From contig NC_067399.1 in assembly GCF_016432865.1 (NCBI RefSeq), forward strand, positions 214,706,001 through 214,770,000: a DNA stretch of 64,000 bases. The letters run 5' to 3'. The notes beneath the pieces are model-generated. The model worked only from the letters and a program-made list of their open reading frames with translations. It was not told the origin of the DNA and did no database searches. Below, piece by piece: positions 2,020 to 48,041 of the stretch. This stretch comes from Antechinus flavipes. Its lineage: Eukaryota. A program made the position numbers and the translations under genes. The stretch's first letter is position 1; each line of letters begins with the position of its first letter.

Positions 2020-2910
2020 AAACTAGATAGTACAGGCGATGGAACATCAGGAAGATCTGAGTTCAAATGTGGTTGCAGATACTTATTAGCTATGTGATCC
2101 TGAACAAGTCCTAACCCTATATGCCTCAGTTCTTCATCTGTAAAATAGGAACACATTGGAAAAGGAAATGGCAAACCATTCTATTGGGTTCTTGTTCTTC
2201 TATAAAATATTATAAAAGTTCTCTCTGGGTGCCTTCCCTGGAATCAGGATTTTGTCGGTCCCTGTTCAGGCGTCAAAATGTGGTGAGCTTTTTCTTCTCA
2301 AAACACAGCCAAGTGATAAAAGTTCAGATCTTTTATTATCTCCAATATAGCCCGGTTAGCTTAGAGGTCTATCTCTCTGCTTGGTTCCAAGAGCTCCCTC
2401 CGAATGTCGCCAAATCCAAAGGTTTTGTCCTTCAGCCTCTGCCTCTGCTTTCTTCAGCCTCCAGCCAGCTCTACTCTTCATGTCATTCCGATGAAATCTG
2501 ACCGAGAGCCTCTGTCTGTTTCTTTTATACAAGAGGGAGGAATTGTGGGATACAAGAGAGAGGGATTATGGGTTTTCTCCCATAGTGCTCTCTGGCCCAA
2601 AGAGCTTTAAGGGAGGTGTGAATTCACCAAGTTACAAAGTTTACTTTGTGAATCTCACAAACTTGTGAACTCCGATGAGTAAAGGTGTAAACACAAGCAT
2701 TGTACTAATTAGTTCTACTTAGTACCTTGTTTCAGGTTCTGGCCCAAAACATCTTCTTGTAAGATCAGATCAACAATCTATCAACTCTAATGAGTTAGCA
2801 GTTTGTAAGGATTCCAACACCATTCCAATATCTTTATCAAGAAAATCCATGGATAAATTCCATGGGGTCACTTAGAAGTGGACATGATTGAACAGCTGAA
2901 CAATGACGAA
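2020..2910 (+). mobile_element. Mar1/MIR-type CORE-SINE split by an LTR insertion (SINE parts about 2020-2181 and 2820-2910)
   Basis: B-box 'gagttcaaat', core 'cctcagttcttcatctgtaaaatagg', and tail 'ggaaatggcaaaccattc|caatatctttatcaagaaaatcc...ggggtcac' that resumes exactly after the LTR. Confidence 0.85.
2182..2819 (-). mobile_element. Solo LTR (638 bp), probably ERV2/betaretrovirus-like
   Basis: 6-bp TSD CCATTC at 2176-2181 and 2820-2825; termini TATTGG...CCAACA; on the minus strand TATAAAA (2523-2529) precedes AATAAA (2332-2337). Confidence 0.85.
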
Positions 2911-4360: not shown

Positions 4361-5389
4361 TTGTCTAAATTTTAATTCATTAGCTATTCCCAAACCAGCT
4401 CCTAATTTCTTTATTTTTGTGAATAACATAACCATCATTTCCTCAAGATGAACCTCAGAGCCCTTGTTGCTACAGTGAATCAACAAAAATATATTAAATG
4501 CCAACTGTGTGAGGTACTGTGCTAGGTTCTGGGAATATAGTGACTAAAAATGAAAAAGTCTCTGCTCTCAAGAGACTTGCATTCTATTGAATCTTGATTC
4601 CTAAAAATTCCTCTTGCATAATCTATCCTTTTCTGTTATTCTCATTATTACCACCCTTCCTGAAGAGTTCATTATTTTTTTTTTTTTTTCTGGATTGTAA
4701 ACTGACCTCTTTGCTTCTCTTCAGTCTTATATTTAAGTTCATCATATGCAAGCTACCTGTTCCTTTTAATTTTAAATGCTTTGATTCATACTGATTTACT
4801 TTTTGTCTCAAAATTGACTCCCCCCCCCCCCCTCCCCAGTTTTTCTCACTTTGTCCTACCTACCTGGGATGCTGTCTCCCTTTTCTCTACCTGTGCAAAT
4901 CATACTTGTGCTTCAAGTCCTGGTTCCAATTCTGCCTCTTTTGTAAAACCTTCCTTAACACTTCTATCTAAAAGTGTTCTCTTCCCCCATTGACTGCTTA
5001 GAACAAAAGATTACTGGTGTTATCTATTTGATAGTGACTCATGTGATATCTTTTGTGTTTAGGTCTTGAGCTGCTTGGTAAATCTTGGTGGTTATTTAAT
5101 TTTCCACATTCTATCACTGTTTCCCAGATAAACCATCAATACTTTATAGCAGGGGAATGTATCTTTTTTCATGTACAAAACATTCTTCAGTAGGGGTAAA
5201 GTGGGGAGAGAGGTCCTTCCCACTCCCAATGTAATCTGAGACCTTGCAAGCAGCAGAAACTCAGTAAAGATTTGTTTTTTGATTGATTTCTTTTTGGTCA
5301 TCTTGACTTTGTACAAAGAAAGTTCATTTTGTCTGGCTTGAATGGAGGATTTTATTCTTTCTAAAATCTATTATAGTGATTGTGTATGA

Positions 5390-6932: not shown

Positions 6933-7079
<147 letters not shown>

Positions 7080-7776
7080 TAGCAGAAACAAATGTTGGTG
7101 GTAGTGGTGGTGATGGGTAATATCAGGTACAGTAATTAATCTATACCCAAGAAGTTTGAAAGGCATCAATCTACTTGTATTATTAAGCAAGCAAACGAGC
7201 AATCTTTGCCCTCTCCTGAGATGTTAGATGGAATTCTCTCTGAAGGCAGAAAGTTAGCTCCTGCAATTTCCAGGATCCTTGAGCATGAGGAATGCCCAGC
7301 CCAGCTGTCTTCTGTGGGTCTGGAAAGGACTAGACAGATACTTATTTTTGGAATGTGGGCTACTGTAGGGGAATAGATATTTGGCTCATGGTTCTATTTT
7401 AGAGATGTCCTTAGGAGTAGAACTGTTAGAACTTTTGCCACAAGATAAAAGATAAAGCCTCAACCTATGTTCTCTATCTTCTCTCAATGATCAAGCTCTT
7501 TGGTCCATTTTCTGCTTTGAATCTACAGGAAAATGCTGAAATACATGGGGATCACACCCTTGGTGGCCCCTATTTGAGGAGTGAGATTTTCCCATTCACA
7601 AGCTATTGTGGGGGGTCAACAACATCCTGTGCTCTGATCCTTTCTCCTTCCCATCTCTCAGAATTTTTATTTTCCTTCAAGGTTTTACTCAGGTGTATTT
7701 CTTCTCTGAAGTCTTCCTTGAACTCTACTTCCCTTCTCCAGTTGTTAATGCTCTCTCCCTCTTTACCTTACCTTTT

Positions 7777-7840
7777 TGTTAGGATTCTTACAAGGTGCTA
7801 AGTCAGATATCTGATTTAGCACCTTGTAAGAATCCTAACA
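7777..7840. mobile_element. 64-bp palindromic element made of two inverted LTR ends, with a 6-bp TSD
   Basis: Arms 7777-7808 and 7809-7840 are reverse complements at 31/32 positions; TG...CA ends; CCTTTT at 7771-7776 and 7841-7846; arm is 23/29 identical to the minus-strand 5' end of the LTR at 2182-2819. Confidence 0.85.
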
Positions 7841-8239
7841 CCTTTTAATAAAGGAAAATATATATATATATATTAAAGGAAATAATATATGTGTACTTAC
7901 TATAAGTGACCCCAACTTCTAGTATAATGTAAATTCATTGAGATTAAGAACTTCTGTCTTCCTTTCCTTAGCACTTAGTATAGAGCCTGTTGCTAAGTTG
8001 CTTAATAAAAGGGAGTTGGGTTGTTCTCTCAGTAGAGAATCAGCTTTAATCAGTCAGAACTTGAGTATGTGGAACAAGGTCTTCATTGACCATCTCTGTA
8101 ACATCTCTTCTCTGCACCAGCGTTTCACCGGCCTTTGTCATATTAAAGGGCTGGAACTTAATGTTAAAGCAGTGGTCTAGAAAAAGACTGCCCTGGAAGA
8201 GCAGATGGGACTCTGCTGGAATGGGCTGTGTTTATCATC

Positions 8240-14085: not shown

Positions 14086-15199
14086 CTCTGCTTGAAAGGC
14101 AGACAAGGAATATAACTTTTGAGTGCTCACTAGAAAAAGTGTGAGTGAGAAAGAGAGTTTGAAGTTCATGCTTTTTACCTGGGAGGATATTTAGCAGTTT
14201 TGGTTATCTCCCTCACAGGACCAGAGGAGAAGCAGGCCACCAGAAAGGGAGTAACCAGAGAGATTCTAAAAGAGCAACTCCAGTCCCTGCTGATGCTATT
14301 AGGCTATTATTTCATAAGGGTGGTGATCTGGAAATATCAGACTCTACAGCCAACTGAATTCTCTTGGCAGCAGGTGTTTGGTGGAGTGGCTAATTGACCG
14401 TGAGCGCCTGCCAAGACCACGGAAGGTGCTATCATCCCAGAGGATCCCCAAGCACCCTAGAGCACCAATATAGTGGTTTTCAAAGCCAGTGGAAAGAGAT
14501 TATGTCCTCTATTACTCATGTGCATCCGCCCCTGGGGAGCTGTACTGGGACCTCATTGAGGCAAGAAGCCAACAAGACTTTTTCCAGTTCAAACTTAAGA
14601 GTGATGTCAGACAGCACCAAACTTGTTCTACTGACCTTTTTCCTAGACAGGAGTGGGGGAAGAAAGAGCTGGAAGTTAACAGCCTCTTTTGCCTTCTGAA
14701 TGGCTTGAACACCTTTAACCTGTTTTAGAGGCTGCAGTGATATAGCCGTAGCACAAAGATGATCAAGACTAATGAACCATTTACCAGAGTTAGCCTAGCA
14801 AGTGAGTTTTATAGGATTTACAGAGACCTTAGAAATCACTGAGCAACTGCCTCCTGATTTTATGTATGAGAAACTGAGTCCAGCCCAGGATCCCAGGGCT
14901 GGGATATTCAAAATCACATAGCTAGTAAATAGCAGAACTGTCATCACGTCCCAGGTCCTCCTACAGGAGAAGACTTAGGAAAGGTGTGATAACTCTCTTC
15001 AGGTAGTTTATTCAAACATAGAACTTACAAGATGGGAGGAACTGAAGATGGAAAAACAAAAGAGTTGTGTGACTTCAAGGAGTTTGTATTTGTATTTTGT
15101 ACTTACTTTCATGTACATATGAGAATACAGACTCCTATTCACATATGTACATGAAAGTAAGTGTAAAATACATGCAAATGGAATAAAAGTTAACATGGG

Positions 15200-15720: not shown

Positions 15721-17634
15721 AACCTTGGACTTGCAAGAAGATGGTCCCTTGTCAGAAACAGATAAACCACCTATACAATAGGTGCCTGAAAAATGGTCCC
15801 CTTCATATCTTAGCCAGCTGGTAGCATCCAGGCTTTGCTCCAGGATGTCCAGTGGGAATACTCCTCTTCAGGCCCTTCACCTGGCATATTGTTGTGAGGA
15901 ACAGATGAGATAATTGTAAAATGCTTAGCCCAGGGCCTGGCACATGGGAAGCACCATAGCACTGTTGTTGTCGTCATTGTTTTGACATTAGATTTATTAT
16001 GCTTGTCCCCAGCAGATAAAGCAAGGCAGAAAGTTGCAAGTGTAGAGAGGCAGACTTAGGCCTTTACCCTCTTAGCAGTTAAAGTTGTCCCAAAGTACAC
16101 TGGGTTCTCTTTCTGCCTCTTTAGAAATCTTTAAGCAAAAGCTGCATGGCCATTTGACAAGGCAATTGGAGAGGGTCATGTTTGGAGAGAATGGTCTCTA
16201 AGGTCCTTTCTAATTCAAATATTCTGTGATTTCAACTCGTATTACAACTGGGCTGCATCTTCTGTGAGGCTGGGACAATTTTCTCTTAGTTTTGGGACTT
16301 TGTTATGTATTTGTAGCAATTTTGTTTCCTCCATTTTTAAACTTCCTCTGGACCTCCCTATCCATACCATATTAAGGAATAGACAAACAAAGTTAGCCTG
16401 GGAAGGAGAATAGGAGTATACCAAATTAGGTGGAGCCCAAATCGCCACAAAGATGATCTGTCTGCATCATTTAGCAACTATCCTTAGAAAAATTCACTAC
16501 ATATAGAGAGGGAGTCCCTTTCTGACATCAGTAAGGATATGTTCTCAGCCCTTTCCTTAACATTCCCTCTATTCCCAAAGGAAAAAAAAATCAACTTTAA
16601 CATTTAAACTTATGTTTCCTAAGTAATTTTGTGGCATTTAATGACACAAATGACATGTCAGGGAACTGATCTTTTTAAAGAAAGGAATCCCCTCTGTAGA
16701 AAGACTTTGCTGCTCCTCTGGAAGGGAGGAGGAATCTAGTGGAGCTTATTCTAGTATACCAAGGAACAAAGCATACACCCTTTACAGCAGTTTCAAATAC
16801 TTAGTTAAAGAAATCATAGAGGGATATTAGATTGGGGCTACTAATGTGAGGTTAGAACACATTATTTTTTGGGTCGGGGAGTTGGGGAGAAATGGAGAAG
16901 TTCCTTCATCCTGACAGGAAGGAAGAAGACAGCTTTGTGTCTCCCATCTGGGAATTGCATTTAAAGAGCCCGGCACCCTCACATAGATACAGTTCTCTCT
17001 CACATGGAACTAACCCCAAGGGAGTAAAGTTTCTGATACAATATTTATGTTCTATGATTTATTTTGGGCTCTGCTAATAATGAGATGTTTTGTCAGAATA
17101 TATTTTTTAAAAAATTATTTGCGTGGTTTTTTTTTGGGGGGGGGGATTAAGGCTTGCTACATTCTTAAGTGTAATTTTTTTTCAGCATTAAGGCTAGGGT
17201 TTTTCCCATGGGAACACAATTATATACGTCAGTGGAAAGATATGATTTGTTAAACAGAAATTCTTTTTATAGCCACTTACTGGGAATGCACCTGTTCCAT
17301 GAAATGAGATATACCTGTGCTGTGTTCATGACTAAGGGGAGATGTGTTCACCTCTTGAGATCTCTGAAGTGGCCATCATAGGAAAGATTAGACTTGTTCT
17401 GCAGAATCGGGAACATTGGGTGGAAGCTTCAGATAAGCAGATTTTGATTTGATGAAAGTCAGCTCTTCCTCACAATAATGTTTAATAATGGTCCAAGTCA
17501 ATTTCATAAAAGCTGAGACCATAAAAGGCCTGGTCAAGGATGTTATGGAAGAGATTCTGACACCGAGTGGAAGGGCACTGCTTTCAGAGTTAGATGAACT
17601 GGATTTCAAATCCTAACTTTGTCACTGAATTATT

Positions 17635-18171
17635 TTTTCCTTTTTTTTTTTTAAAATAACTTTTTATTGCTGAAACTTATGCCAGGGTAATTTTTTACAG
17701 CATTATCCCTTGCATTCACTTCTGTTCCGATTTTTCCCCTCCCTCCCTCCACCCCTTCCCCCAGATGGCAAGCAGTCCTTTACATGTTGAATGAGTTACC
17801 GTATATCCTGGATACAATATACGTGTGCAGAACCGAACAGTTCTCTTGTTGCACAGAGAGAATTGGATTCAGAAGGTATAAATAACCCGGGAAGAAAAAC
17901 AAAAATGCAAGCACTTTATATTCATTTCCCAGTGTTCTTTCTTTGGGTGTAGCTGCTTCTGCCCATCTTTGATCAATTGAAACTGAATTATCTCTCTTTA
18001 TTGAAGAGATCCACTTCTATCAGAATACATCCTCAAACAGTATCATTATTGAGGTATATAATGATCTCCTGGTTCTGCTCATTTCACTTAGCATCAGTTC
18101 ATGTAAGTCTCGCCAGTCCTCTCTGTATTCATCCTGCTGGTCATTCCTTAGAGAACAACAATATTCCATAA
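17635..18171 (-). mobile_element. Young 5'-truncated L1 (ORF2 C-terminus, 3'UTR and poly-A) inserted in a MIR-type SINE
   Basis: Poly-T and ttttatt at the left end; minus strand encodes an L1 ORF2 C-terminal-type peptide (...RNDQQDEYREDWRDLHELMLSEMSRTRRSLYTS...); 15-bp TSD TGTCACTGAATTATT at 17620-17634 and 18172-18186. Confidence 0.92.
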
Positions 18172-24435: not shown

Positions 24436-24569
24436 AGTGGGCTCTTAATTATGTTTACTTTTTGATTGTTCCCAGTAATAACCCAGAAGTTCCCAGTGGT
24501 CTAGAAGACAGAAAATCTGAGTTCAAATTTTGCCTTTGCCACCTATTTTGTGAAGTGGGCTTCACTTTA

Positions 24570-25183
24570 TTTATTTTTTTTTAATTTTAATATCTTTTTA
24601 TTGATAGAACACATGCCAGGGTAATTTTTTACAGCATTATCCCTTGCATTCATTTCTGTTCCGATTTTTCCCCTCCCTCCCTCCACCCCTTCCCCCAGAT
24701 GGCAAGCTGTCCTTTACATGTTGAATAGGTTACAGTATATCCTGGATACAATATATTTGTGCAGAACCGGACGGTTTTCTTGTTGTACAGGGAGAATTGA
24801 ATTCAGAAGGTATAAATAACCCGGGAAGAAAAACAAAAATGCAAGCAGTTTATATTCATTTCCCAGTGTTCTTTCTCTGGGTGTAGCTGCTTCTGTCCAT
24901 CTTTGATCAATTAAGGCTCTCTTTATCGAAGAGATCCACTTCCATCAGAATACATCCTCAAACAGTATCGTTGTTGAGGTATATAATGATCTCCTAGTTC
25001 TGCTCATTTCACTCAGCATCAGTTCATGTAAGTCTCGCCAGTCCTTTCTGTATTCATCCTGCTGGTCATTCCTTACAGAACAATAATATTCCATAACATT
25101 CATATATCACAATTTACTCAACCATTCTCCAATTGATGGACATCCTTTCATTTTCCAGCTTCTAGCCACTACAAACAGGACTG
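24570..25183 (-). mobile_element. Young 5'-truncated L1, same family as 17635-18171
   Basis: Clearly over 90% similar by eye to the 17.6-kb copy; 16-bp TSD AGTGGGCTTCACTTTA at 24554-24569 and 25184-25199; target CTTT/AA fits the L1 endonuclease preference. Confidence 0.93.
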
Positions 25184-29482: not shown

Positions 29483-29740
29483 NNNNNNNNNNNNNNNNNN
29501 NNNNNNNNNNNNNNNNNNNNNNNNNNNNNNNNNNNNNNNNNNNNNNNNNNNNNNNNNNNNNNNNNNNNNNNNNNNNNNNNNNNNNNNNNNNNNNNNNNNN
29601 NNNNNNNNNNNNNNNNNNNNNNNNNNNNNNNNNNNNNNNNNNNNNNNNNNNNNNNNNNNNNNNNNNNNNNNNNNNNNNNNNNNNNNNNNNNNNNNNNNNN
29701 NNNNNNNNNNNNNNNNNNNNNNNNNNNNNNNNNNNNNNNN
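29483..29740. other. Assembly gap (258 N)
   Basis: Run of N. Confidence 0.99.
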
Positions 29741-47764: not shown

Positions 47765-48041
47765 NNNNNNNNNNNNNNNNNNNNNNNNNNNNNNNNNNNN
47801 NNNNNNNNNNNNNNNNNNNNNNNNNNNNNNNNNNNNNNNNNNNNNNNNNNNNNNNNNNNNNNNNNNNNNNNNNNNNNNNNNNNNNNNNNNNNNNNNNNNN
47901 NNNNNNNNNNNNNNNNNNNNNNNNNNNNNNNNNNNNNNNNNNNNNNNNNNNNNNNNNNNNNNNNNNNNNNNNNNNNNNNNNNNNNNNNNNNNNNNNNNNN
48001 NNNNNNNNNNNNNNNNNNNNNNNNNNNNNNNNNNNNNNNNN
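47765..48041. other. Assembly gap (277 N)
   Basis: Run of N. Confidence 0.99.

Follow-up and report, generated by a model that had tools for sequence, protein, structure and literature searches.

The 64-bp palindrome that occupies positions 7777..7840 of the window, i.e., the whole 64-kb stretch of DNA that was analyzed, lies in a CMIP intron and is likely an LTR-derived fold-back relic, the outcome of a rare accident; to date, nothing points to a new mobile family. Read against an abundant repeat in the contigs of four organisms, the element appears as letters 1–45 of this repeat, likely an LTR, to which letters 1–19 are appended in reverse, with only 19 letters new. On balance, we lean toward a single origin, in which integrase joined two U3 ends and the middle closed at a native 26-letter hairpin. 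Should this reading hold, the element would preserve in the germ line the trace of an integration that used two identical left ends, an event known with purified integrase and for which no natural example was found in the literature covered, and it would document a direct route from an LTR to a perfect intronic hairpin.

Anatomy of the palindrome and its orthologous copies

The two arms of the palindrome are 32 letters each, pair at 31 of 32 positions and meet with a spacer of 0; the sole mismatch opposes a G at element letter 26 (7802) to a T at letter 39 (7815). The termini are TG...CA, and the element lies between two direct copies of CCTTTT (7771..7776 on the left and 7841..7846 on the right; neither these nor the palindrome are assigned a strand). 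This target site duplication is exactly 6 bp long, as direct repeats of lengths 3–5 and 7–9 fail, and the chance that CCTTTT recurs at the far junction is about 1 in 2,000 from local composition. The arms, the termini and the 6-bp flanks had been reported in a first-pass annotation of the same DNA and were reproduced. Within the 64-kb window, 7777–7840 is the top-scoring short-spacer palindrome and one other passes the cut; folded as RNA, it reaches −53.9 kcal/mol (z −13.1), and 0 of 200 shuffles are as good.

The element consists of two unequal parts, letters 1–45 and letters 46–64. Letters 46–64 (7822..7840, minus strand) are the exact reverse complement of letters 1–19 and are the sole part that is not colinear with the parent repeat described below. 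Letters 20–45 (7796..7821, plus strand) form a 26-letter quasi-palindrome with 13-letter arms and one G/T mismatch. When letters 1–45 are folded as DNA, their 3′ end pairs with letter 20 at −7.4 kcal/mol; 1 of 500 shuffles is as good, a control that is circular since the stretch was chosen for palindromy. The right copy of CCTTTT also opens a 5-bp hairpin (7841–7854), and an AT-rich dinucleotide run comes next, where contigs break (7841–7890). A second palindrome of the window (15091–15172) has 37-letter arms that are 92% alike, an 8-letter spacer and TG...CA termini; by eye, it has no direct repeat at its edges and no resemblance to the LTR arm.

The stretch 7400–8100 was aligned to the contigs of four sequencing runs, one each from organisms E, G, A, and C, whose word shares are 0.92, 0.63, 0.32, and 0.14, respectively. 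In all, 24 runs matched 7150–8100, and those with small word shares (organisms B and D, and further runs of organism C) were left out of the comparison. Against the window, the left contigs of the orthologous site show 0 differences in 401 letters for E, 3 in 403 for G, 15 in 400 for A, and 25 in 434 for C. Those of E, G, and A end 24–26 letters inside the element and their right junction is unlisted, positions 7847–7882 being skipped as repeat, so that they show an occupied site only, palindrome or LTR alike. In organism C, one contig (7401–7834) runs through the centre and 13 letters beyond letter 45, and another (7812–8089) covers the second arm, passes through the duplication and enters the right flank. 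The flank of this organism bears 32 listed substitutions in 619 letters, i.e., it is about 5% diverged. Because organism C carries both junctions and the centre, the palindrome predates the split from organism C. The alignment of the orthologous site recommended in the first-pass annotation thus returned an occupied site in E, G, and A and the palindrome itself in C; neither an empty site (a joint or a 70-letter gap) nor a full LTR was observed at this location in the four runs.

That the palindrome could be a fold-back artefact of assembly or library preparation is scarcely conceivable in the light of these contigs. The window does come from a gapped assembly (535 N in total, in gaps at 29483–29740 and 47765–48041), and no listed contig of E, G, or A spans the centre. 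However, the two contigs of organism C belong to another species and to another study, and since other contigs are clipped by the aligner at 7821 when as few as 9–11 letters are left, the extension to 7834 is genuine. The contigs of organism C thus already contradict an artefact.

The parent repeat and its probable retroviral identity

About 1,000 contigs per run fell on the aligned stretch, nearly all of them at the arm. In one run (X18), the summed depth is 188,544 on the left arm vs. 31 in the flank, a figure that is not a copy number and shows abundance only. Of 4,042 contig pieces, the 32 listed ones were tallied; removal of 6 orthologous pieces and 3 that lay off the element left 23. Among these listed, non-orthologous pieces, 22 of 23 cross the centre free of gaps, with 3–10 other letters in 45–51. 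Stops at letter 45 or its mirror account for 21 pieces (17 end at 7821 and 4 begin at 7796–7797), the two others end at 7817 and 7804, and none of the 23 covers both 7795 and 7822. Were the 16-letter continuation unrelated, 10 matches would arise with a P of 0.002 each. Eighteen of the 22 centre-crossing pieces were placed on the left arm, a placement that is only suggestive of an inherited G/T mismatch, given that ties may go left and that no differences are listed in 7754–7895.

Beyond the stops, the loose ends behind 7821 (13–26 contigs per run) agree with one another at 0.70–0.82. Agreement is 0.70–0.91 for loose ends behind 7817 and 7821 and only 0.40–0.58 for those before 7771–7779. Since the left loose ends disagree and the right ones agree, the contigs represent one repeat at many insertion sites. 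Stops at letter 45 and a shared continuation further imply an abundant repeat that natively begins with letters 1–45 and then goes on with a sequence of its own. The first 45 letters of this repeat subfamily correspond to 7777..7821 on the plus strand, colinear and ungapped in the contig alignments of the four organisms, and are interpreted as the 5′ end of an LTR U3. The centre of the palindrome is accordingly not a new joint, and we infer that the hairpin at letters 20–45 is native to the parent LTR; the G/T mismatch was likely inherited from it. The element had been described as two inverted retroviral LTR ends: both ends do resemble U3, but they are not two butted 32-letter ends, as letters 1–45 are one colinear piece of the repeat.

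Two distinct shared continuations, behind 7817 and behind 7821, suggest that each of the four organisms has the parent repeat in two or more variants. Some 70 letters to the left of the element, a low pile-up of non-orthologous contigs at 7640–7711 (up to about 15 times the flank depth) marks another short repeat.

A related solo LTR of 638 bp lies on the minus strand at 2182..2819, between 6-bp direct flanks (2820–2825 and 2176–2181). On that strand, its TATAAA (letter 291) and AATAAA (letter 483) identify the arm-like end as U3. The palindrome arm agrees with the 5′ end of this LTR at 23/29, where the best of 300 shuffled arms reached 21/29 window-wide, and the likeness proposed in the first-pass annotation is thereby upheld, as are the 6-bp flanks. 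The 3′ end of the LTR matches the arm at only 13/32; over the full 32 letters, both ends of the element match the U3 end, at 23/32, rather than the U5 end, at 13/32. Compared with each other, the termini of the solo LTR agree at 14/32, and its 3′ end resembles the right end of the element at 7/8 in local alignment. At 23/29, the solo LTR does not qualify, on sequence, as the direct parent of the element. Its letters 24–37 (2796–2783, minus strand) form a small hairpin in a register close to that of the parent's hairpin, which is not significant (44 of 500 shuffles). Elsewhere in the window, an inverted pair of about 105 letters (1097–1200 and 4910–5014, 92–98% alike, 3.7 kb apart) flanks the solo LTR on either side, and a direct repeat of about 530 letters (17633–18171 and 24567–25096, 91–95% alike) has its copies 6.9 kb apart.

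The parent repeat probably derives from an endogenous retrovirus (ERV) of class II, the element having retained the left end of the LTR, i.e., of U3. It is taken as retroviral on the strength of the TG end and of the 23/29 agreement with the solo LTR; no internal viral gene has been tied to the repeat. The betaretroviruses HERV-K and MMTV give a 6-bp target duplication (PMC4422553), in accordance with the earlier attribution of this length to beta-like elements, and class II ERVs are the most frequent among ERV reading frames of the devil (PMC4408412). Among 8 published dasyurid clade ERV records, by eye none starts with the arm in the record starts inspected (PMC11334065). Neither viral nor metagenome contigs contained an exact match to 26 arm letters (0 in each set), which is uninformative for an animal repeat. 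The same letters gave 0 matches in the supplement of PMC4408412 (one file excluded), where line breaks could mask one, and 0 in the supplement of PMC11334065, a count that is meaningless as GenBank text runs in ten-letter blocks.

Candidate origins of the element

Both host junctions of the element are exact U3 termini, and its duplication is 6 bp long like that of the neighboring solo LTR. Joining by integrase is preferred over a later collapse within the chromosome because the U3 terminus is where viral DNA, while still free, comes to its end, and because integrase chemistry predicts both exact junctions. By this route, a plus strand started at the polypurine tract, which lies upstream of U3 (PMC12789967), would fold at letter 45 onto letter 20 and be extended as far as its own 5′ terminus, so that a U3 end capped by a hairpin results; alternatively, the U3 ends of two longer viral DNAs would be used. 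All versions of this step yield an identical product and are indistinguishable. Integrase would then perform a concerted insertion of a pair of these ends, staggered by 6 bp, and host repair would anneal both halves over the self-complementary letters 20–45. On free viral DNA, copying would halt at the U3 terminus, which would explain the exact second end.

Several parts of this route have counterparts in known systems. In vitro, RSV integrase yields concerted products from a gain-of-function U3 donor and cross-links to hairpin-closed end oligos (PMC3579926), and in yeast fold-back inversions arise within free single strands (bioRxiv 10.1101/2024.03.07.583931). When integrase joins one end only, duplications are usually much larger, or deletions are found instead (PMC5041404). 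Aberrant proviruses of HIV-1 and ASLV likewise have a viral end joined by host repair to viral sequence, in either orientation; they keep one normal end and usually bear large duplications or deletions, whereas the element has two normal-looking junctions and 64 bp left (PMC5041404). Integrase joining is weakened by the need for two aberrant ends in one intasome, or else for a 64-bp duplex that would be too short to loop, as well as by the lack of an empty site in 4/4 runs; nor was a 3′ end observed for the parent subfamily. Within the literature covered, neither an in vivo precedent nor any palindrome that combines two U3 ends of an LTR with a normal target duplication was found, and the string “palindrom” has 0 occurrences in the main texts of PMC11334065 (dasyurid ERVs) and PMC4408412 (devil repeats). 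The parent LTR may well be named in Dfam or Repbase, and a precedent may exist in subscription papers outside this literature.

The first-pass annotation also proposed that a solo LTR had collapsed by template switching between its short terminal inverted repeats. These alone cannot give 32-letter arms, the ends of the neighboring LTR agreeing at 14/32; a collapse works only with the internal hairpin. In that amended form, a provirus or solo LTR with a 6-bp duplication would first insert normally; a nascent or broken strand would later fold at letters 20–45, copy letters 19–1 and rejoin the far terminus via the short terminal inverted repeat, the rest being deleted. We regard this as possible, if doubtful. 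It requires normal integration only, with the duplication inherited, and the native hairpin is seen in the contig alignments. Moreover, the 7/8 likeness between the 3′ end of the neighboring LTR and the right end of the element would ease a chromosomal template switch onto the terminus. Breaks in yeast show short fold-back inverted duplications of about 5–34 bp (bioRxiv 10.1101/2024.03.07.583931), and a template-switch model with inverted microhomology was proposed for the MITE Goblin (PMC3814204). However, a chromosome offers nothing that would make copying cease at letter 1, and the strand has to come back exactly onto the terminus, hundreds of letters off. The element contains neither reverse-complemented letters of the flank nor a U5 remnant that could be told apart from the arm, and the site in organism C is without a full LTR.

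A capture that dispenses with integrase, in which end joining takes up a fold-back fragment of viral cDNA where a chromosome has suffered a staggered break, is highly improbable. Yeast breaks do take up inverted templated inserts of this size, and these resemble the element in their self-priming at an internal inverted repeat and in their short inverted copy (bioRxiv 10.1101/2024.03.07.583931). They are formed by end joining with 0–4 bp of microhomology and, unlike the element, have no defined target duplication (bioRxiv 10.1101/2024.03.07.583931); indeed, capture predicts neither the exact TG/CA stops nor the 6-letter duplication of the family.

The element shares with solo LTRs of class II (beta-like) ERVs its TG...CA termini, its 6-bp target site duplication (PMC4422553) and its origin in an LTR-like repeat that occupies many insertion sites. 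It differs from them in its length of 64 bp and in its two inverted U3 ends; it has neither the U3-R-U5 order nor R and U5, carries no promoter or polyA signal, and is not a product of LTR-LTR recombination. Like TRIM/SMART elements, it is a tiny, non-autonomous sequence derived from an LTR. TRIMs have two direct repeats, a PBS and a PPT, and move through RNA. In the element, by contrast, the arms are inverted with no spacer, and the two direct repeats with PBS and PPT are absent.

Comparison with MITEs bears on a further proposal of the first-pass annotation, a multicopy family of MITE-like mini-elements, here taken as repeatedly made or re-mobilized by integrase. On the one hand, the element is short and non-coding, with terminal inverted repeats and a target duplication, and it resembles Goblin and Made1, which derive from DNA transposons, in its long inverted arms and in the reverse duplication of the subterminal sequence of one end via inverted microhomology (PMC3814204). 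On the other hand, when compared with the contigs and the neighboring LTR, its ends match an LTR-like repeat and not an autonomous DNA transposon, and in contrast to Goblin and Made1 it comes with no evidence of amplification. Retroviral integrase is not known to have an excision route. The window holds no second copy, and 0 of the 23 listed non-orthologous pieces pass letter 45, the longest being 51 letters although the longest ones were kept. This opposing test is a weak one: contigs break in high-copy words, 32 of 4,042 pieces are listed, and even the ortholog was assembled through its centre in 1 of 4 runs. Old copies in the hundreds are disfavored by the tally, but a few copies, or young and identical ones, are not. 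A multicopy family found no support in this tally, and we consider it very unlikely.

Joining of two U3 ends by integrase yields a sharp prediction on the form of such products in genomes, namely LTR letters 1–45 followed by reversed letters 19–1. It is unlikely, if less so than such a family, that the process recurs: a U3 hairpin native to an LTR family would time and again give hairpin-capped ends, which integrase would insert in pairs, seeding the genome with 64-bp perfect palindromes with 6-bp duplications; if this were true, it would establish a class of retrovirus-made MITE-like elements together with a germ-line proof of two-U3-end integration.

The CMIP intron and possible function

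The exon at 6963..7013 (plus strand), bounded by AG/GT, matches Pfam PH_21 (C-Maf-inducing protein PH domain) with an E-value of 3.5e-7, above the cut-off. The palindrome begins 764 letters downstream of its splice donor, in line with the distance of about 760 nt from a CMIP exon given earlier. A hairpin would be expected to form in CMIP pre-mRNA, but no evidence of a function emerged. A search of Rfam returned 19 hits up to E 1, all under the gathering score (best 40.1 of 88 bits) and all generic hairpin matches, and no curated pre-microRNA family matched the palindrome at its gathering score.

Conservation of the arms was considered as a sign of selection and rejected, near-perfect arms lying within neutral expectation. 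At a pairwise divergence of about 5%, 1.7 changes are expected in 64 letters along one lineage, so that 0 changes have a P of 0.19 and 0–1 changes a P of 0.51. The insertion is likely neutral, and, as a single 64-bp insertion, would have little effect by itself. The copy of organism C appears to carry private changes, at most 8 substitutions along with the loss of 3 letters, in the part where they are masked by the pile-up.
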